A stretch of 64,000 nt of DNA from a virus (IMGVR_UViG_3300028048_000060:64001-128000), one strand, 5' to 3'. Positions 17,631-26,820 are shown, counted from the first letter of the stretch. Notes: generated by a model not told the origin, from the sequence alone. Translations and numbers: made by a program.

Positions 17631-18419
17631 ATGAGACAAAGAACAATTAAACACTCAGTAAGACTTTCAGGAATAGGTCTCCATACTGGAGAAATTATCC
17701 ATGTCTTACTCAAACCTTCAAAGGCACCAGGGATTTCCTTTAACAACATCAAAGTGAGTCCTGACACTGTCTTTGGAACATCATTATGCACCAAAATTGG
17801 GCAAGTAAGGACTATTGAGCACTTAATGTGTGCATTGTCTATTCTTAATATAACAAACTTAGATATTATCTTAGATGGAGACGAAATCCCTATCTTAGAT
17901 GGTGGAGCATTTGTGTTTGTTGAGATGCTCAAGGATAATGTCTTGGACTTAGATGGTTTCATCAAAGATTTCTTTATTCCAAATGAAGGAATAGAAGTTA
18001 TAGATGAAAATGACTCTGAAAAGTATATCAGAGCATATCCATCAGGAAAATTAAGCATTAACCTTAAAGTAGATTTTAATGGATTAAAACAACAGTTCTT
18101 TTATAATAAAGACATAAGCACATCTTTAGAATTCCTAAGAGCAAGGACGTTCTGTTATCTTAGAGATGTTGAGGAGATGCAGAAGAATGGAATGGCACTG
18201 GGTGGAAACTTAAATAACTCCATTGTCTTAGATAATGATAATAATCCTATAAACCACTTTCTGTTTGACAATGAGTTAGCTAAACACAAGATGATAGACT
18301 TTATAGGGGACTTAAGTGCTTTAGGATTTCCTGTTATAGGAAGAATAGAGTGTTCTAAACCTGGGCATACTATAAACAATTTGTTTGTTAAGAAATTAAA
18401 GGAAAAGTTAAATGTTTAA
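17631..18419 (+). CDS. lpxC: UDP-3-O-acyl-N-acetylglucosamine deacetylase
   Basis: MRQRTI..GIGLHTG, TIEHLMCAL, EIPILDG, ARTF, ALGG.L.N.IV, HKMIDFIGDL, KPGH: LpxC zinc and catalytic motifs. Confidence 0.93.
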   Translation: MRQRTIKHSVRLSGIGLHTGEIIHVLLKPSKAPGISFNNIKVSPDTVFGTSLCTKIGQVRTIEHLMCALSILNITNLDIILDGDEIPILDGGAFVFVEMLKDNVLDLDGFIKDFFIPNEGIEVIDENDSEKYIRAYPSGKLSINLKVDFNGLKQQFFYNKDISTSLEFLRARTFCYLRDVEEMQKNGMALGGNLNNSIVLDNDNNPINHFLFDNELAKHKMIDFIGDLSALGFPVIGRIECSKPGHTINNLFVKKLKEKLNV

Positions 18420-18801
18420 TGCTTTTAAAAAGATACTGAACTTAGAAGACTTAACCCAAGAGGACTTAGACAAGATAAGTCCATTCCTGATGTTAAGATG
18501 GCTAGAGGGAAATCCAGGATGCTTACAGATAGCACAGTTCCTGAATGTATATAACAAAATCCCTTTAGAAGCACAAATAGAGTTTATAAAGTCTATTACT
18601 CAAGGAAGGATTAAGTACATTAAGTTTATAAAAGGAAACAAGATAGAGTCTAAAGAACTTGATCTTATATCAAAATACTTTAAAATATCTTTAGACAAAG
18701 CACTTTTATACTCTGAGTTTCTTTCTAAGGAAGACATAAAGAGTATTGAGTCACAGTTAGATTCATTAGAGCCAGGCCAAAAAATTAAGAGAGGAAAGTG
18801 A
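18412..18801 (+). CDS. Clamp loader small subunit, T4 gp62-like
   Basis: PF.M.RWL...P.C...A..LN......Q..F, KY.K..K, L.SKYFKIS...A..Y pattern and size. Confidence 0.7.
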   Translation: MFNAFKKILNLEDLTQEDLDKISPFLMLRWLEGNPGCLQIAQFLNVYNKIPLEAQIEFIKSITQGRIKYIKFIKGNKIESKELDLISKYFKISLDKALLYSEFLSKEDIKSIESQLDSLEPGQKIKRGK

Positions 18802-19700
18802 TGATTGTTTTTACACATAATGACTTAGATGCGGTTGGATGTGAATTATGTCTTAGACACAGTAACTTAAAGATAGACAAAGTGTTCTATGAAGACTACG
18901 TTACAATGAAGGACACTGTTCGAGATATTATCACATACGGGGCTAAGAACAACATAGACACTGTGTTCATTTGTGACTTGAGTTTCTCAGAGAGACCTGA
19001 GTTGCTCCAAAATCTTCTAAACCACTTTAAGACTGTCATTCACTTAGACCACCACTCATATCCTGAGGACTTTAGTGTCAAAGTAAGAGATAACTGCATC
19101 TTAAAACAAATTATAGACCCTTCAAGATGTGGATGTAAGATTGTCTATGATGTTCTGAAACTGAATATTCCTTATCTTAATGCTGTTATTGAAGTAATAG
19201 ATAAGTTTGACCGATTTGTCACTGACAGTCCTTTATTTGAAAAATCAGTAAGTATGAACTCTTACTTTTGGAAGTATGGCTATCAGCATTTCTTAGAACA
19301 GTTTAAAGAAAAAATTCCAGTTTCTTATAATAAAGACATAGAAATATTAAATGAAGAGACTTTAAGAGAACTTGAAGAACAAACTAAGAAAGGACAGATT
19401 TTAAAATCAGACAAAGTGACTATCAAGTTTGGAGATATCCACTTTGTAGAAGCAGAAATAAATGCTTTTAATCAAGGGCAAAGAGGGTTTCTGTGTATTA
19501 CTCCAGGAAACATCAAGGTAAGACTCAACAACAAGATATTCTCTCAGGAAGAGGCAGAGAATCTTAGACTTAAAATTTTGGGTTCAGTTAATGGCCACCC
19601 TCATGCATTTGTAGATGTCTTTAAGAATGATAATCCTGAACTTACCTTTGGTGAAATCCAAAGAATTTGTAATATCATTAACTCTTATGAAGGACTTTAA
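18798..19700 (+). CDS. DHH-family phosphoesterase
   Basis: THNDLDAVG, CDLS, LDHH motifs. Confidence 0.8.
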   Translation: MMIVFTHNDLDAVGCELCLRHSNLKIDKVFYEDYVTMKDTVRDIITYGAKNNIDTVFICDLSFSERPELLQNLLNHFKTVIHLDHHSYPEDFSVKVRDNCILKQIIDPSRCGCKIVYDVLKLNIPYLNAVIEVIDKFDRFVTDSPLFEKSVSMNSYFWKYGYQHFLEQFKEKIPVSYNKDIEILNEETLRELEEQTKKGQILKSDKVTIKFGDIHFVEAEINAFNQGQRGFLCITPGNIKVRLNNKIFSQEEAENLRLKILGSVNGHPHAFVDVFKNDNPELTFGEIQRICNIINSYEGL

Positions 19701-20061: not shown

Positions 20062-21771
20062 TTGAAAGAAATATACAAAAAGAAAACATCAAGAGAACAT
20101 ATCTTAGAAAGACCAAATATGTATATTGGTGCTTCTAATGTAGTGGAAGTAGAAGATTATTGCTTAGTTAATGACAAGATTCAGAGAACTTCAGTTAAGT
20201 GTGTTCCAGGACTTTTAAAGATTATCAACGAGATTATAGACAACTCAGTTGACATTGCTATTAAGACTAACTTTGAAGGATGTAACTCAGTAAGTGTTAA
20301 AATCACAGATGATACTGTTGTTGTAGAAGACAATGGTCCAGGAATTCCAGTTTCTAAAAATCCTGAAGGAGAGTATATCCCATTTGTTTGTTGGGGATAT
20401 GCAATGTCAGGTTCTAACTTTGACAATGACGAGAACAGAACTCACTTAGGGATGAATGGTGTAGGAAGTTACTGTACGAATGTTTGGAGTACAGAATTTA
20501 CTGGTATTTCAGATGACTCTAAGAACAGATACACTGTTAAGTTTAAAAATAATGCTTTAGATTATAAGGAAACTGTTTCAGACTCAGTCTCTAAGGGCGT
20601 TACTGTTAAGTTTAAACCTGACCTTAAGCGCTTTGGAATTGAAAAGATAGACCAAACTCACAAAGACTTAGTCTATCAGAGACTGTTAAATCTCAGTATT
20701 AGCTTCCCTCTAATCCAGTTTAAGTTTAATAACAAAGCTATTAAGACTAAGAACTTTAAGTCTTATGTTAGCAGTTTTGCTGATGAAGGAAGTTTTGAGG
20801 TCTTTCAGAGTGATAATTTTAGCTTTGCTGTTATTCCAAGTCCTTCAGACGAGTTCCAACAGTTTAGTTATCTAAATGGTCTTAATATCAAAGATGGTGG
20901 AACTCACATTGATGTGATAGCCAACAACATTGTTAGTTTACTGAGAGACAGTCTTTCTAAGAAGTACAAGACTATTAAACCTGCTGATATTAAGAACAAG
21001 CTGATGGTAGTTGGTGTGTTTAAGAACTTTGCTAATCCTAAGTTCAACTCTCAGACCAAGGAAAAGCTGACTAACTCTGTTTCAGAAGTAAATCGGTACT
21101 TTGGTGATATCGACTATCAGAGTCTTTCAAAGAAAATTTTAAAGAACTCTAATATAATTAGTCCTATCATAGAAGTCTTTAAGATAAAGGAAGAACTTAA
21201 AAACAGACAGGAATTAAAGACTCTTAATAAAGCAAAGAAAATCAAAGACGAGCATTACTTACCTGCTTTAAAGGAAAGTAAATACATAATGGTCGTTGAG
21301 GGACTTTGCTTAGATGAAAATACTGAAGTTCTTACATCTGATTTTAGAAGCAAACAAATAAGAGACATAGACATTGGTGATACAATCATAGATTCTAACT
21401 TTAATCCAGTAACAGTTCTCAGTAAATCACACAAACTCACTAAGACACTTAGAGTAAATTTTAGAGATGGATATGTTATTTGTGGATTAGAGCATCCATT
21501 CTTTGTATATAATAAAGAAAGAAAAATATTTGAGTATGTTAAGGCTAAAGACTTAAATTCAAATTATTCTCTTGTTAGGTCTAAGATTAGAAATGATGCT
21601 AGATTCTCAGAAGTGCTTGATGTAGAAGAAAAACGTTTGTTTCTTGAAGAAACTTATGTAGATTTTACAGATGATGATTTCTTTTGTGTTATTAGAGACG
21701 GAAGAATTCAAAGAGTTAAAGGAACTGAGATAGTTAAAGGAGACTGTTTGATTTTACAATGTGTGAGTTAA
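20062..21771 (+). CDS. DNA topoisomerase II large subunit (gp39-like) N-extein (415 aa) fused to split-intein N-half
   Basis: HILERPNMYIG, EIIDNSVD, DNGPGIP, GMNGVG, SQTKEKL GHKL motifs; VVEGL followed by CLDENTEV. Confidence 0.93.
   Translation: MKEIYKKKTSREHILERPNMYIGASNVVEVEDYCLVNDKIQRTSVKCVPGLLKIINEIIDNSVDIAIKTNFEGCNSVSVKITDDTVVVEDNGPGIPVSKNPEGEYIPFVCWGYAMSGSNFDNDENRTHLGMNGVGSYCTNVWSTEFTGISDDSKNRYTVKFKNNALDYKETVSDSVSKGVTVKFKPDLKRFGIEKIDQTHKDLVYQRLLNLSISFPLIQFKFNNKAIKTKNFKSYVSSFADEGSFEVFQSDNFSFAVIPSPSDEFQQFSYLNGLNIKDGGTHIDVIANNIVSLLRDSLSKKYKTIKPADIKNKLMVVGVFKNFANPKFNSQTKEKLTNSVSEVNRYFGDIDYQSLSKKILKNSNIISPIIEVFKIKEELKNRQELKTLNKAKKIKDEHYLPALKESKYIMVVEGLCLDENTEVLTSDFRSKQIRDIDIGDTIIDSNFNPVTVLSKSHKLTKTLRVNFRDGYVICGLEHPFFVYNKERKIFEYVKAKDLNSNYSLVRSKIRNDARFSEVLDVEEKRLFLEETYVDFTDDDFFCVIRDGRIQRVKGTEIVKGDCLILQCVS
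21307..21771 (+). mobile_element. Split intein N-half (154 aa)
   Basis: Block A CLDENTEVLT..I.DI.IGD; block B VICGLEHPF; ends at a stop codon. Confidence 0.88.
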
Positions 21772-23051
21772 AGATATTTGTAGGAGTCTTAACAGATGAA
21801 CTTCTAAAGAAATTCACCACTTTTCCAAAGGCCAGTTTGTTCTATCCATTCAAAGAACTTACTGGAATGAAGTGTAAAGACTGGTGTTTAGAAAGATTAC
21901 GAGACTTAGAGACTCCTAAATGTGCTTGGTGTGGGAAGATTGTTAAATTTGATACTGAGTATTGTATTGAAGAGAGAAATTTGTTTGTCATTGTTAAATT
22001 TATAGAGGAGCATATTTGCTTTGATACTAAGAACTGTCCAAGAAAAGGTCTTAATCCAAACTCAGTTGAATTTGTTTCAAAGGCTTATAATATAAGCGAA
22101 GAAGAAGCTAACAGAAGAATCTTAGAACGAAATAAATCTCCATTTTATAGGACAAATTATGCCTCAGATGAAGAATATAGTAATGCGCAAAAACGAAATG
22201 AACAATGGTATATAAACCAGTACGAAGATGGAAAGGAAAGATTTATCAAGAGAAACAAAGCCATTTCTGAAAGAGTTACAAAGGAAGGGATGATAAGAAT
22301 ATACGGAAAGGAAAAGGCAGAAGCGATTTGTAAAAGTAAAGCAACGTGTTGTAAAGAACACTTTATGAAAAAGTTTGGCGATTCTTGGAAAGAAGAATAT
22401 GAGAAACATCTTCGAAAAGTAGAACAAACAGAGGAATCATTTATTGCGCGATACGGTCCCGAACTTGGAAAAATAAAGTGGGAAGGCCATATAAAATTAG
22501 TGAAACAAATTCTGAAGAAAAGACTCGAAAATGAAACCTCTGAACAGAGAAGAAAACGATGTTGCTTTTCAAAGGAGTTCTTTAAAACAAGATATGGAAA
22601 TAATTGGAAAACCTACTATAAAGAATTTCAGAAGAAGATACAAGTAAAGGCAGGAAAAGCATCAAAACTTTCTTTAAAATATTTTAAACCTATTATTGAT
22701 TTTCTCGATAAGAATCATTTAAAATATTATATAGGTGTAGATGGAAATAAGGAGTATTTCCTTTGGGATAGGAAAGCTAAGAAACTTCGATTATATGACC
22801 TTTGTATCTTAGATATAAAGACTATAATTGAATTTCATGGCTCTCTATATCATTATAACAAAGATAACCTTTTAGAAAATCCTTTTGGTTTTTCATTAAA
22901 TGAAAGAAAAGAAAAAGACGAACAAAAGGAAAGATTAGCGAAAGCAAATGGATTTGACTACTACGTTATATTTGACACAGATGATAGGACAGAGATGGCT
23001 GAAAAGTTAATCAAAATAATTCAGGAAAAAATAAATGCAAGAACTAACTAA
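21759..23051 (+). CDS. Free-standing homing endonuclease between the intein halves, PD-(D/E)XK/Vsr-like C-terminus
   Basis: CxxC, repeated (R/K)YG helical units, YDLCILDIKTIIEFHGSLYH. Confidence 0.75.
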   Translation: MCELKIFVGVLTDELLKKFTTFPKASLFYPFKELTGMKCKDWCLERLRDLETPKCAWCGKIVKFDTEYCIEERNLFVIVKFIEEHICFDTKNCPRKGLNPNSVEFVSKAYNISEEEANRRILERNKSPFYRTNYASDEEYSNAQKRNEQWYINQYEDGKERFIKRNKAISERVTKEGMIRIYGKEKAEAICKSKATCCKEHFMKKFGDSWKEEYEKHLRKVEQTEESFIARYGPELGKIKWEGHIKLVKQILKKRLENETSEQRRKRCCFSKEFFKTRYGNNWKTYYKEFQKKIQVKAGKASKLSLKYFKPIIDFLDKNHLKYYIGVDGNKEYFLWDRKAKKLRLYDLCILDIKTIIEFHGSLYHYNKDNLLENPFGFSLNERKEKDEQKERLAKANGFDYYVIFDTDDRTEMAEKLIKIIQEKINARTN

Positions 23052-23466
23052 AGAACAGGAACTTAATTTTGAATTAGTTGATATAGAGTCAGTTGAAGAT
23101 AATGGATATGCTAACACTTTTGATATCTCTGTAACTGGGAAACATGATTTTATCTTAGGAAATGGAATTATCACACATAATTCTGCTCTTGCAGGGTTAA
23201 CACCTTCTCTAGGAAGAGAACAGTGTGCATATTATTGTCTAAGAGGAAAACCACTGAACGTTTGGAATGCGTCTCAGTCAAAGTTCACTTCTAATAAAGA
23301 ATTAAGTACTTTATATAAAATTGTAAAGAGTCTTGAAGAAGAAGAACCTATGGAAGATGGTGATTTCTATAAAATTGAAGTTAATGGAAAAGAAATGATT
23401 GTAAATGAAAATGACGAGATTAAGGTAGATGGGAAGTGGGTGAGTGTTAAGGAGTTTATTGGTTGA
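23035..23466 (+). CDS. Split intein C-half (49 aa, 23035-23181) fused to topoisomerase C-extein (TOPRIM start plus gp39-type tail)
   Basis: TFDISVTGKHDFILGNGIITHN|S; extein SALAGL..LRGKPLNV..NKEL. Confidence 0.92.
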   Translation: MQELTKEQELNFELVDIESVEDNGYANTFDISVTGKHDFILGNGIITHNSALAGLTPSLGREQCAYYCLRGKPLNVWNASQSKFTSNKELSTLYKIVKSLEEEEPMEDGDFYKIEVNGKEMIVNENDEIKVDGKWVSVKEFIG

Positions 23467-24410
23467 TTCATTTTGTTTACAGACTAACATATTTGGGAGA
23501 GACGAGTCCCAAATATTATATAGGGAAGCACTCTGGTGATATTGGTGATTTAGGGACAAAATATTTCACAAGTTCAAAGATTGTTAGGGAAATGTTTAAA
23601 AAAGACCCTAAATCCTTTAAGACTAAAATCATAAAGGTGTTTGACACTTGCACTCAGGCACTCGCATTCGAAAGTAAGATTTTAAGAAGAGTGGATGCTT
23701 GCAGAAATAAACTATTTTTTAATCAGTCTAATTATTCATATTATACTAAAGACAGAACATCTTTAGTTACTGTCTTTGACAATATTCTCCAGTGTAAGAG
23801 GTCTATTCCATGTGATGAATTTTATGCGAATAGAGAACGATATATCTCTGACCATGATGGACTTACAATTTTTAAAGACTCAGATGGAAATATAATCAGG
23901 TGTAGTAAAAGCTTCGCTTCTGAACATAATCTTGTTGGAGTTAATAAAGGTGTTGTCTTTGCTTTGAATGACTCAGGTAAGTATGTTAGACTTACACAGG
24001 ATGAATACCACAGTAATAAAGATAAATTTAAAGTTGGCACAACAGGAAATGTGATTTGTAAAGATAAGGTTACGGGAGAAACAAAAAGAGTCTCAAAGGA
24101 AGAATTTGACTCTAACCCAAACCTTAAAGGTGTTTATGACAAATACCAGTTTAAAATTTGCCCTCTATGTAACAAACAGATTTCAGTCCAAAATTATGAC
24201 AGGCACATAAACAGACATAAAACACTGATTTTATGGGTAACTGATGGAAAAGATACTTGGAAATGTACTGAAGAAAAATATTTATTGAAATATAAAGACA
24301 AATTTAATATAATTCAAAAGAATAAGGATAATACCATTGGATACATAGATGGCAAACCTTATAACATCAGATTCGTTGGAAGAATTAGAAAAAATTTTTA
24401 TTTGGAGTAA
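23463..24410 (+). CDS. GIY-YIG (Seg-like) homing endonuclease
   Basis: FVY..YYIGK..YFTSS..E..FFN N-terminal nuclease domain followed by repeated DNA-binding units. Confidence 0.8.
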   Translation: MIHFVYRLTYLGETSPKYYIGKHSGDIGDLGTKYFTSSKIVREMFKKDPKSFKTKIIKVFDTCTQALAFESKILRRVDACRNKLFFNQSNYSYYTKDRTSLVTVFDNILQCKRSIPCDEFYANRERYISDHDGLTIFKDSDGNIIRCSKSFASEHNLVGVNKGVVFALNDSGKYVRLTQDEYHSNKDKFKVGTTGNVICKDKVTGETKRVSKEEFDSNPNLKGVYDKYQFKICPLCNKQISVQNYDRHINRHKTLILWVTDGKDTWKCTEEKYLLKYKDKFNIIQKNKDNTIGYIDGKPYNIRFVGRIRKNFYLE

Positions 24411-24413
24411 GAT

Positions 24414-24964
24414 ATGAAAGAATTTAAGAAGGTCAAGTTAACCAAAGAACAATTAAAGGAATACAGAGAAAATCCTAATATCAGAAGACGTAAAATTCTC
24501 ACAGGAGGTTTTGAGAAGATTGTCTATGCCTCCGACCAGGACTTAGACTAGCCCTTTGGGGCTAGTATATTTTTTAAGGAAAATTAGACGGATTCCACAT
24601 TCGCGCATTGCTCTCAGGATTTATTAACAAATACTTACCTGAGTACAAGGAAAGAACTGGGATGCTTGAAACCCCTATCATAGGATTTTTAAAGGCGCAA
24701 AAGCTTCAGAGATGGAGTTATGACTTAGATGATGAGTCTAAGACTAAACCTGGAGAAGTTCCATTCTATTACAAGGGATTAGGTTCCTGGGAGAAAGAAG
24801 ACCTCAAGAAGGTTGTAAAGACAGATGGTTTAGAAAAGATGATTAAGATGCTTGATTTTAATTCTGAAGATGCATATAATTCATTAGAAGAGTGGTTGGG
24901 AGATGACTCTGAACCGCGAAAGAAACATATCTTAGAAAACGACTTTAACATCGCTGATGTATAA
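24414..24964 (+). CDS. Topoisomerase II subunit, gp60-like, predicted join(24414..24548,24590..24964) by translational bypass, 169 aa
   Basis: 45 codons ending YASDQDLD-stop; downstream frame resumes GFHIRALL..TPI..YYKGLGS; the join restores the TOPRIM DxDxDG.HI motif. Confidence 0.88.
24546..24589 (+). other. Ribosomal bypass (hop) element with 41-nt coding gap
   Basis: GAC-TAG take-off inside hairpin ACTAGCCC-TTTG-GGGCTAGT; AAGGA 6 nt before the matching landing GAC. Confidence 0.85.
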
Positions 24965-24973
24965 GGAACACTA

Positions 24974-25480
24974 GTGAGAAAATTCACAGAACAAGAAAGG
25001 GAGAAGTTAAAATCCCTTATATCTAACTATATAGAGTTAAGAAATTTGTCTTTTGGAGAAAATCATAGTCAGGCTATTACACAGGGTCACCAAAAAGCAA
25101 AGGCTATCAAAGACCTTTTAAGTAAAAACAACATAGATCCATCCTGGATGGGAATGATAAAGAAAAACTCAAATGAAGATGAAATTATCTCCAAACTGTT
25201 CGAAGATCATCCAGAAGTCAAAAGTGATAAAAATAAAGAAATATGTCTTCTCTATATAAAGATAAAGAAAATGAGTAAAGACGTTGATGCGAGAAAAGAG
25301 AAGACTAAGAGTTCTATCTTAAAGAAAATAGCTAAAATCGACCCTATGCTATCAGCTTATGTTTTGTATAAAGTTAAGATTTTCCAAGCACGTAAAATAC
25401 TGGAAAAGAGTCTAATGAATGAAACATTAGACTCATTAGAACAGAGATACAAAGAGATTTTAAAGGATTTTGATTTATGA
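24974..25480 (+). CDS. Hypothetical protein
   Basis: ORF with AAGGA RBS between the topoisomerase genes. Confidence 0.6.
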   Translation: MRKFTEQEREKLKSLISNYIELRNLSFGENHSQAITQGHQKAKAIKDLLSKNNIDPSWMGMIKKNSNEDEIISKLFEDHPEVKSDKNKEICLLYIKIKKMSKDVDARKEKTKSSILKKIAKIDPMLSAYVLYKVKIFQARKILEKSLMNETLDSLEQRYKEILKDFDL

Positions 25481-26820
25481 CAGATTCGGTTAAGATTGAA
25501 GAATTTTTAAATACAAGATTGTCTAATTATGCTAGCTATGATAATCTTAGAAAGATTGGAAGTTACATTGATGGACTTAAAAATGCTAGTAGAAAAGTTC
25601 TTTATACTATCCATGAGAAGAACATCAAAGACACAGAAAAGGTCTCGAGATTAGCTTCTAAGTGTTCTGAGTTCTCTGATTATCTCCATGGAGATGGGTT
25701 ATGGAGAGTTATAGTTACTCTAGGACAGGACTTTGCAGGGACCAATAACATTCCTTTGATTCAGAAGTTTGGTGCATTTGGATGTCGTTCAAACAACGAA
25801 CCTGGTGCCCCAAGATACATCCATGCTTCAGGTTCTAAGATGTTCTTTAGTCTGTTTAATTATAAAGATGATGATATTTTAGTAAAACAGACATTTGAAG
25901 GAACTACTATAGAACCAAGATTCTATGTTCCTACTATCCCTATTATCTTAGTTAATGGGAGTGAAGGAGTTTCTTCTGGATTTGCTCAGAAAATCTTAGC
26001 GAGAAATCCTAAGAATATCATTAAGTACATTCAGAACTTCCTTAATAAAAAGCCTACTAGAAAAGACTGGTTAAATCCATTTTATAATGGATATAATGGC
26101 GACATTATCAGAGACCCTAACTTCCCTGACGACCCAAAGAAATGGTTAGTAAATGGAAAGGTAGAAAAGGTTAAGTCTAATGTATACAGAATTAAAGAAA
26201 TTCCATTTACTTATGATTTAAACTCCTACCTGAAAGTCTTAGATTCCTTGGAAGAGTCAAAGACAATTTTGAGTTATTCAGATATGTCAGATGGAGACTG
26301 TAAGTTAGAGTTTGAAGTAAAGGTTCCAAAGGATTTTAAACACGAAGATGTTTTAAAGACGTTAAAGTTACAAAAGCCTATTACTGAGAACTATACTTGT
26401 ATAGATGAAAATAACAAAATCAGGATTTTCGAAGACTCAGAAGAAATAATCAAGTCTTTTATAGATATAAAGCTAAAATTTATTCAAAAGAGAAAAGAGT
26501 TTCTGGAAAAAACCCTTCAGGGTGAATTAGACATTTTGAACTCTAAGATTTTGTTTATTACTATGGTTATAGATAAGAAACTAAAGATAAACAATATCCC
26601 TAAAGAACAGGTTATTGAAGCATTAAGCAAAGTAAAGAAAATTGTAAAAGTCCAAGACAGTTATGATTATCTTTTAAAGATGCCTATCTATTCTCTGACA
26701 AAAGAGAAAGTTGAAGACTTAAAGAATCAGGCATTATCAAAGAGTTCAGAACTTGAGGAATTAAAGGAAATGTCTAAAGAGCAAATATGGTTAAAAGATT
26801 TAGAGGAGATAAAGTTGTAA
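25477..26820 (+). CDS. DNA topoisomerase II medium subunit, gp52/GyrA-like
   Basis: IDGLKNASRKVLY, YLHGD, catalytic APRYI, P.ILVNGSEG..SGFA. Confidence 0.93.
   Translation: MTDSVKIEEFLNTRLSNYASYDNLRKIGSYIDGLKNASRKVLYTIHEKNIKDTEKVSRLASKCSEFSDYLHGDGLWRVIVTLGQDFAGTNNIPLIQKFGAFGCRSNNEPGAPRYIHASGSKMFFSLFNYKDDDILVKQTFEGTTIEPRFYVPTIPIILVNGSEGVSSGFAQKILARNPKNIIKYIQNFLNKKPTRKDWLNPFYNGYNGDIIRDPNFPDDPKKWLVNGKVEKVKSNVYRIKEIPFTYDLNSYLKVLDSLEESKTILSYSDMSDGDCKLEFEVKVPKDFKHEDVLKTLKLQKPITENYTCIDENNKIRIFEDSEEIIKSFIDIKLKFIQKRKEFLEKTLQGELDILNSKILFITMVIDKKLKINNIPKEQVIEALSKVKKIVKVQDSYDYLLKMPIYSLTKEKVEDLKNQALSKSSELEELKEMSKEQIWLKDLEEIKL

Follow-up and report, generated by a model that had tools for sequence, protein, structure and literature searches.

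On the plus strand of the DNA considered here, between positions 20062 and 26820, lies a T4-type topoisomerase II operon in which the large subunit of the enzyme is written in four colinear coding pieces separated by three cuts: a split intein, a gene split of the 39/60 type, and a 41-nucleotide bypass cassette of the gene-60 type. The DNA is a window of 64,000 nucleotides, positions 64001-128000 of a linear 154,736-bp IMG/VR virus contig (IMGVR_UViG_3300028048_000060) that is about 68% complete; coordinates count from the first letter of the window, and every feature of the operon is on the plus strand. GC content near the locus is 26-41% (in 300-nucleotide windows), and no match to the region came up when 50,697 phage records were searched with megablast. 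The original prediction had described four coding pieces in this place, and all of the elements it described were found there. How would one catalytic domain be put together from such fragments, and is the phage still using it? These are the two questions that we address.

The first open reading frame (ORF), ORF1 (20062-21771), begins with a TTG and encodes the N-extein of gp39, 415 residues long (20062-21306). This extein has a GHKL ATPase and a GyrB-type transducer, recognized by Pfam HATPase_c and DNA_gyraseB, and its residues 2-414 match PHROG 543, "topoisomerase II large subunit," at E 3.7e-117; ORF1 then continues into the N-terminal half of an intein. The N-extein ends ...KYIMVVEGL at residue 415, that is, with the first half of the EGxSA motif of the TOPRIM domain. 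The second piece is found on ORF3 (23035-23466), which encodes the C-terminal half of the intein, then Ser+1 (nucleotide 23182), then ALAGLTPSLGRE...CLRGKPLN and a C-terminal tail; the gp39 C-extein proper (23182-23466, 94 residues and a stop) thus holds Ser+1, ALAG, LRGKPLN, and a C-terminal extension (...IVNENDEIKVDGKW...). On the PHROG 543 profile, the matches of the two ORFs are contiguous, covering positions 25-444 (ORF1) and 445-496 (the C-extein of ORF3). The third and fourth pieces are the two segments of a gp60-like gene, described below.

Homologues without these cuts put the pieces in order. A gp39 homologue that is unsplit (L011) maps colinearly onto the gp39 pieces, first with residues 3-415 and then with 410-505; the gp60 segments are matched in the same way by P0004, an unsplit homologue of gp60, with residues 3-45 and 42-165. 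Neither leaves a gap in the query, and because they map in this manner, the cut-up layout is not a matter of chance. The cuts themselves fall at more intimate positions than had been supposed. The original prediction placed all three interruptions between the TOPRIM motifs, and this is right for the gene split, which lies between LRGKxLN and DxDxDG; the other two lie within motifs, the intein inside EG(L)|SA and the gap inside DQDLD|G.

The two halves of the intein match complementary stretches of one profile, Pfam Intein_splicing, at positions 37-114 for the N-half (E 0.0031) and 116-155 for the C-half. The N-half (21307-21771, 154 residues and a TAA stop), which also matches NF038136 (E 8.8e-4) and found insignificant matches only when compared by sequence with the PDB, starts CLDENTEV, the Cys1 of block A being Cys416 (nucleotide 21307), and it keeps the histidine of block B, which reads ICGLEHPF. 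This segment is absent in intein-less relatives, and in an alignment of four of these gp39 relatives, the intein site reads ...EG(Q/L/A)SA.... The C-half (23035-23181, 49 residues, ending ...HDFILGNGIITHN) has its own ATG at 23035 with AGGA 8 nucleotides upstream, scores 26.1 bits against TIGR01443 intein_Cterm (cut-off 15.6), and aligns with the C-termini of solved mini-inteins in the PDB; it ends ...GIITHN and is followed by Ser+1, which means that the terminal His-Asn and the nucleophile are present. Splicing would give the junction VVEGL-SALAG without a seam, as the ILEGLSAQNG of L011 shows.

Between the halves, in a different frame, and overlapping ORF1 by 13 nucleotides and ORF3 by 17, lies ORF2 (21759-23051, 430 residues). 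Its sequence has no meaningful match in Pfam or the PDB, even with a 35-sequence profile searched against the PDB and with Pfam scans of family members, and it was structure comparison only that identified this ORF (and likewise ORF4, below). An AlphaFold model made with 35 sequences reaches a mean predicted local distance difference test score of 89, and its C-terminal domain (residues 295-430) resembles Escherichia coli Vsr (1cw0; Z 10.2, root-mean-square deviation 3.6, 128 residues aligned) and the homing endonuclease I-Bth0305I (3r3p; Z 9.8, root-mean-square deviation 2.9, 95 of 97 residues aligned). Residues D347, E358, and H365 are invariant in the 35 sequences, and the family itself is large, with 737 cluster representatives at E <= 0.001. 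From its modeled fold, ORF2 is a predicted free-standing homing endonuclease of the Vsr-like kind.

Is the intein really split? The halves stand on separate ORFs: ORF1 ends with the stop at 21769-21771, ORF2 is in another frame, and ORF3 has a start of its own. One could imagine that ORF1, ORF2, and ORF3 nevertheless give a single polypeptide by way of two frameshifts or that the frame changes are assembly errors, and that what we have before us is an ordinary cis-splicing intein. The Vsr-like ORF does sit at the canonical insertion point of an intein endonuclease, and a preprint that treats this same contig (Manning & Atkins, bioRxiv 2022, 10.1101/2022.08.31.505936) calls the element, in the passages concerned, simply a "homing intein." We regard an unsplit intein as very improbable all the same. 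Identical stops, frames, separate starts, and overlaps of 13 and 17 nucleotides are reproduced in independent assemblies of other samples (L010, L015, and L016), which rules out an assembly error as the source of the split; a slippery sequence is absent at both junctions; the ATG of ORF3 comes with a well-spaced AGGA; and the arrangement is already documented under the name of "fractured gene" (PMC2677866). A fractured gene, in which a free-standing endonuclease lies between the halves of a split intein, is the layout to which the sequence points, and trans-splicing is predicted from it.

The second cut is the split between gp39 and the gp60-like gene, and inside it lies a second endonuclease candidate, ORF4 (23463-24410, 315 residues), whose TTG start overlaps the gp39 stop on ORF3. 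Its residues 1-90 match the catalytic domain of I-TevI (1ln0) with a Z score of 7.3 (root-mean-square deviation 3.3, 84 residues aligned), and the top 11 structural matches are all GIY-YIG domains, with UvrC, PD-T4-3, and Eco29kI coming after I-TevI. By sequence, ORF4 scores 18.3 against Pfam SegE_GIY-YIG, below the cut-off of 25, and finds nothing meaningful in the PDB. In an alignment of its family, Y19, G21, E70, and N87 are invariant and the YYIGK motif is kept; Tyr6 is part of a conserved (H)(Y/F)VYR motif, which is missing from two N-terminally truncated sequences, and no counterpart was identified for the Arg that GIY-YIG enzymes conserve. Near the C-terminus (24158-24223, residues about 233-254), the family conserves a CPxC...QN..RH...H motif (CxxC...H...H), which is probably a zinc-finger DNA-binding element. 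ORF4 is, on its fold, a predicted GIY-YIG homing endonuclease, and thus the expectation of two homing endonucleases in between the pieces of the subunit was borne out at the level of predicted folds, Vsr-like and GIY-YIG.

The third cut lies within the gp60-like gene. The first segment of the gp60-like gene (24414-24548, 45 codons; PHROG 7229 positions 4-47) encodes an N-terminal extension and then ...KIVYASDQDLD, and its last codon, GAC at 24546-24548, is the presumed take-off codon, followed at once by TAG. The second segment (24590-24964, 124 residues and a stop; PHROG 7229 positions 48-170, E 3.9e-19) starts GFHIRALLSGF..., and its frame opens exactly after a second GAC, at 24587-24589. 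Between the two lie the 41 nucleotides to be bypassed (24549-24589), delimited from sequence, folds, and relatives: UAG at 24549-24551, the 3' part of a hairpin, an AU-rich tract, AAGGA at 24576-24580, and the landing GAC. Read from the take-off codon, the cassette is GAC UAG CCC UUUG GGG CUAG U..., the AU-rich tract, AAGGA, AAAUUA, GAC, and GGA. The hairpin (24547-24566; an 8-bp stem with a UUUG loop, -14.6 kcal/mol for a 22-nucleotide segment) takes in the final two bases of the take-off codon as well as the stop; a Shine-Dalgarno-like GGA (24578-24580) stands 6 nucleotides 5' of the landing GAC; and inside the gap (the 41-nucleotide segment), there is no GAC or GAU. The unsplit P0004, 78% identical, reads ...FASDQDLDGFHIRALLSGF... 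uninterrupted, which is the exact predicted product of a bypass, and the junction DQDLD-GFHIRALL equals the contiguous sequence of P0004. The N-terminal extension is 27% identical to residues 1-46 of T4 gp60; when the residues of the gp60 nascent-peptide signal (as listed by Manning & Atkins) are traced by sequence alignment, Tyr16 and Arg24 have retained counterparts, and Thr40 is replaced by Ser.

Relatives show the cassette in variation. Matched take-off and landing codons occur in 12 related loci as well, and the distance from take-off to landing in these 12 is 30, 39, 40, 41, 43, or 48 nucleotides; the gap of the window differs from that of L016 (41 vs. 40 nucleotides) by one T, with about 93% identity in the pieces that the two share. 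The stop is UGA in L012, L013, L014, and L024, as against UAG in the window, and with the UGA stop the 3' arm of the hairpin covaries (CUAG becomes UCGG or UCA), two base pairs being doubly compensated. The near-identical loci L012 (5889-5934) and L013 (4143-4193) have gaps of 43 and 48 nucleotides, one AATTT unit apart, and the length of the gap is therefore flexible; a 336-residue GIY-YIG homologue is present in L012 and absent in L013. In L014 (370-900), a related gp60 gene has a 30-nucleotide cassette (490-522) two codons further upstream; the GAC in ...TDQD is the take-off codon, with UGA and a GAAA-loop hairpin behind it, and landing there must be on GAU, followed by TTA GAC GGT, if DQDLDG is to be restored. 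The insert in L014 is in frame, and a gene caller read through it, with TGA as tryptophan, to give an 11-residue insertion (P0010). When the post-gap gp60 protein was used alone as a query for related loci, it returned zero relatives.

We also considered that the gap might be explained by TAG being read as an amino acid, and rejected this idea: 41 nucleotides is not a multiple of three, and TAG ends 19 of 105 long ORFs on the contig. No phage tRNA-Asp is present in the sequenced contig, which has tRNA-Cys, tRNA-Gly(UCC), and tRNA-Gln only. These form a cluster (Cys-GCA, Gly-UCC, and Gln-UUG) at contig positions 154124-154366, outside the window and 370 bases from the end of the contig, past which the cluster may continue.

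Another story can be told about the gap, and it deserves a hearing. Translation might just stop at the UAG at 24549, and the downstream part might be re-initiated behind AAGGA, in which case the TOPRIM domain gains one more non-covalent piece. The AAGGA is Shine-Dalgarno-like and lies 6 nucleotides before the landing codon, in some relatives the codon that precedes GAC is AUU or AUA, which are weak starts, and experiments have demonstrated hopping for T4-type GGA cassettes only. What speaks against this story is that a start codon at or near the landing site is not conserved (the preceding codon is UUA, AUA, or AUU, and then comes GAC) and that, between the landing GAC and the first canonical start, relatives conserve the protein sequence but use different synonymous codons; the TTG at 24608 in the window, for example, is TTA or CTT in relatives. 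Independent initiation is unlikely for that reason. Furthermore, matched Asp codons, a stop held in a covarying hairpin, and a gap free of GAC and GAU would all be purposeless, the cassette is homologous to that of T4, in which bypass is proven, and the break falls inside the metal-binding DxDxDG motif. We rate re-initiation as improbable, and a ribosomal hop from one GAC to the other is how we read the cassette.

If the pieces are brought together as proposed, is the result an enzyme that the phage keeps? Beyond the large subunit, the operon contains a complete gp52, the medium (cleavage-religation) subunit (25477-26820), which matches Pfam DNA_topoisoIV over profile positions 1-431 of 432 (E 1.7e-75) and PHROG 551 and retains the PRYI active-site tyrosine motif. 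The ATPase, transducer, TOPRIM, and cleavage-core modules are all present by Pfam and PHROG matches, and the catalytic motifs are all intact: DNGPGIP, GMNGVGSY, QTK, EG(L)SA, LRGKPLN, DQDLDG, and PRYI. The ratio of nonsynonymous to synonymous substitution rates (dN/dS), computed pairwise by the Nei-Gojobori method against L010, L015, and L016, is 0.04 for the N-extein, 0.09-0.25 for the N-intein, 0.15-0.16 for the Vsr-like ORF, 0-0.04 for the C-intein, 0.07-0.08 for the C-extein and its tail, 0.09 for the GIY-YIG ORF, 0.08-0.18 for the first gp60 segment with its N-terminal extension, and 0.026-0.033 for gp60 after the gap. All of the pieces, both endonucleases included, are under purifying selection.

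One may still see in such a locus a decaying remnant, overrun by selfish elements, of a gene that the phage no longer needs, either because it uses the topoisomerases of its host or because it has a copy in the unsequenced third of its genome. Two endonuclease genes and three interruptions within 4.9 kb invite this thought, and so does a contig that is about 68% complete. A remnant, however, would not be expected to keep all of its catalytic motifs and an intact gp52, or a dN/dS of 0.03-0.25 in every piece, or an arrangement that recurs in dozens of contigs with differences that are mostly synonymous; nor was a second copy of the large subunit found in the 154.7 kb of the contig, onto which the unsplit gp39 and gp60 homologues mapped to these four pieces only, in order. 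(Pfam Toprim, PF01751, has zero matches on the contig, which is uninformative as to absence, the pieces of the domain being too short to score.) We give the decay of this locus very little credence. In judging it to be functional, the original prediction pointed to intact motifs and a complete gp52, and here it has fared well: the motifs can be read, gp52 spans its profile, dN/dS is low in every piece (0.25 at the highest), the relatives are seamless, the hairpin changes are compensatory, and the only copy in the sequenced contig is this one. The locus is maintained rather than decaying.

The elements are also spread widely and unevenly among relatives. The N-terminal part of gp39 together with the same N-intein is found in 39 protein clusters, the intein being 81-100% identical, on contigs of up to 182 kb, and the full triple arrangement recurs in at least two other samples, those of L015 and L016; L017, which is short, shows its GIY-YIG part only. 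Other states exist as well. L011 has the 39/60 split alone; L002-L009 and L013 have the split and the bypass cassette; in L012, a GIY-YIG homologue joins the split and the cassette; in L010, whose identity to the window is 92%, the intein and its Vsr-like ORF are present and the GIY-YIG ORF is missing; and the window, L015, and L016 have all three elements. Homology between the window and L010 breaks at window positions 23460-24470, and the endonuclease was therefore exchanged together with the first 19 gp60 codons, which are about 67% identical between the two. Over 21307-21756, the synonymous divergence (dS) of the N-intein from L010 is 0.07, far below that of the N-extein (0.24), the Vsr-like ORF (0.28), and the C-extein (0.65), a mosaic that suggests gene conversion or homing tracts of recent date.

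A bolder proposal would take these observations one step further: that the three selfish elements segregate independently among closely related rumen phages and that trans-splicing and hopping are both obligatory for a single catalytic domain, in a host possibly outside the gamma-proteobacteria. We lean toward this proposal, though only slightly. If independent segregation is true, it becomes possible to reconstruct in which order the elements invaded and which tract each endonuclease co-converted, the replacement of the first 19 gp60 codons with the GIY-YIG gene being one example.

Taken together, the most probable explanation, and one that we hold with good confidence, is that the locus is the topoisomerase II operon of a rumen myophage with T4-type organization and that three selfish elements invaded the gene for the large subunit, each bringing its own repair device, by which the pieces would be rejoined. 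We infer splicing, hopping, assembly, and nuclease activity by homology to T4 gene 60 and to characterized split inteins. The history might have run as follows. An intein would have inserted between Leu415 and the Ser of EGxSA, and a gene for a Vsr-like endonuclease would have broken the intein into two genes; ORF1 and ORF3 would be translated separately, and the 154-residue and 49-residue halves would associate and trans-splice to yield a gp39 of 509 residues. A 39/60 split cassette would have divided the subunit into gp39 and gp60, with the tails (C-terminal on gp39 and N-terminal on gp60) encoded by the cassette itself, and gp39 and gp60 would assemble non-covalently with gp52. Within gp60, a ribosome would arrive at GAC (Asp45) with UAG in its A site, the take-off hairpin would form, and the peptidyl-tRNA-Asp would detach; the ribosome would slide 41 nucleotides, the tRNA would re-pair with GAC at 24587-24589, 6 nucleotides past the Shine-Dalgarno-like GGA, and decoding would resume at GGA, giving a gp60 of 169 residues with DQDLDG intact. 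That a working subunit would need all three—trans-splicing, non-covalent 39/60 assembly, and a ribosomal hop—is just what the original prediction proposed, and the gapless colinearity and the seamless junctions are consistent with it.

Several points weigh against this explanation. The N-half of the intein scores 14 bits against TIGR01445, below the cut-off of 24.5, its block B has Gly where Thr is usual, and at 154 residues it is long for the N-half of a split intein. The Nei-Gojobori estimates, being pairwise, rest on few differences for the short pieces. At about 68% completeness of the contig, another topoisomerase gene may lie in the remainder. The hop would also depend on what ribosome and tRNA-Asp the host supplies. 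Finally, cassettes of the GAC type, like splicing and enzyme activity here, are known from sequence alone, the preprint of Manning & Atkins being, in what it reports of them, bioinformatic only.

The surroundings of the operon are of some interest in themselves. A short way upstream, at 17631-18419, is a 262-residue LpxC homologue, syntenic in relatives (Pfam LpxC on the called genes of L002, L005, L007, L008, and L015), and a phage-encoded LpxC hints at a Gram-negative host. Between LpxC and gp39 is a conserved 300-residue ORF (18798-19700) whose counterparts in relatives belong to the DHH phosphoesterase family of Pfam, and between gp60 and gp52 is a 168-residue ORF (24974-25480) without a Pfam or PHROG match, where relatives have ORFs of 153-177 residues in the same position. 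In the relative L002, two IS605 OrfB/TnpB (Cas12f-like) genes lie near the topoisomerase operon (L002:1-980 and L002:11652-12911). In L006 (7250-8424), the anaerobic ribonucleotide reductase NrdD was called as a 1021-residue product with a weak GIY-YIG match between two NRDD matches, which may be one more case of an endonuclease inserted into an essential gene.

Why should one care about such a locus? To our knowledge, gene-60 bypassing was long considered unique to T4, and variants that rely on a different tRNA (Asp), skip a shorter gap, and go with different endonucleases are natural tests of the hopping model. Here, three devices (split intein, gene split, and hop) are stacked in a single metal-binding domain, and the locus shows how far homing elements can colonize an essential phage gene that is still under selection. 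The locus itself is remarkable; the value of our analysis lies in confirmation, to which it adds exact boundaries, fold support for the endonucleases, selection estimates for each piece, and sibling alleles in which the elements segregate independently.

We say confirmation because the locus was already known. The original prediction knew of no described locus that combines all three devices, and in this it was mistaken. Manning & Atkins searched genomes and metagenomes for gene-60-type cassettes, and an entry in their Table S2, MGS5 (clade 9), is this very contig, IMGVR_UViG_3300028048_000060, scaffold Ga0256405_10000342, from bovine rumen. They note all three features of MGS5, the intein included, and the cassette that they describe for its clade takes off from and lands on Asp GAC, has UAG as its stop, and carries an extra C/G pair as well as a UUUG loop; the triple combination was thus published for the same contig in 2022. 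ORF1 (as far as it is shown there) and the full 315-residue GIY-YIG sequence of MGS5 are identical to those of the window, whereas close relatives are only 93-94% identical. In the preprint's passages on MGS5, it is not spelled out that the intein halves are on separate genes, which implies trans-splicing, and those passages hold no selection or fold analysis and, for clade 9, no sibling that lacks an endonuclease.

Among characterized endonucleases, I-Bth0305I (3r3p) and I-TevI (1ln0) match ORF2 and ORF4, respectively, in catalytic fold, at a sequence identity of only 14-16%; both are intron-encoded, whereas ORF2 and ORF4 are free-standing, and the DNA-binding parts differ. The fractured genes of Dassa et al. 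2009 (PMC2677866) have the same order as the first cut here—N-extein and N-intein, an endonuclease ORF, then C-intein and C-extein—in phage replication genes, and the spacing of D...E...H in ORF2 (11 and 7 residues) equals that of D51, position 62, and H69 of Vsr as given in that paper. Their loci differ from ours in the host proteins, the main text mentioning neither topoisomerase, gyrase, nor gp39, and they are without a bypass or a second endonuclease.

T4 itself offers the last comparison. It has no intein, the endonuclease in its split is the HNH protein MobA rather than a GIY-YIG enzyme, and its cassette (GGA UAG CC UUCG GG CUA...) takes off from a Gly GGA, one codon downstream of the Asp GAC used in the window, and spans 50 nucleotides rather than 41, with a UUCG loop in place of UUUG and without the extra C-G pair of the window's stem. 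In T4 39-mobA-60, however, the same subunit is split in the same place, with homologous tails at the C-terminus of gp39 and the N-terminus of gp60, and the cassette of T4 gene 60 interrupts the same DxDxDG motif and has a stop behind the take-off codon, a hairpin over both, a Shine-Dalgarno-like triplet, and matched codons at either end.

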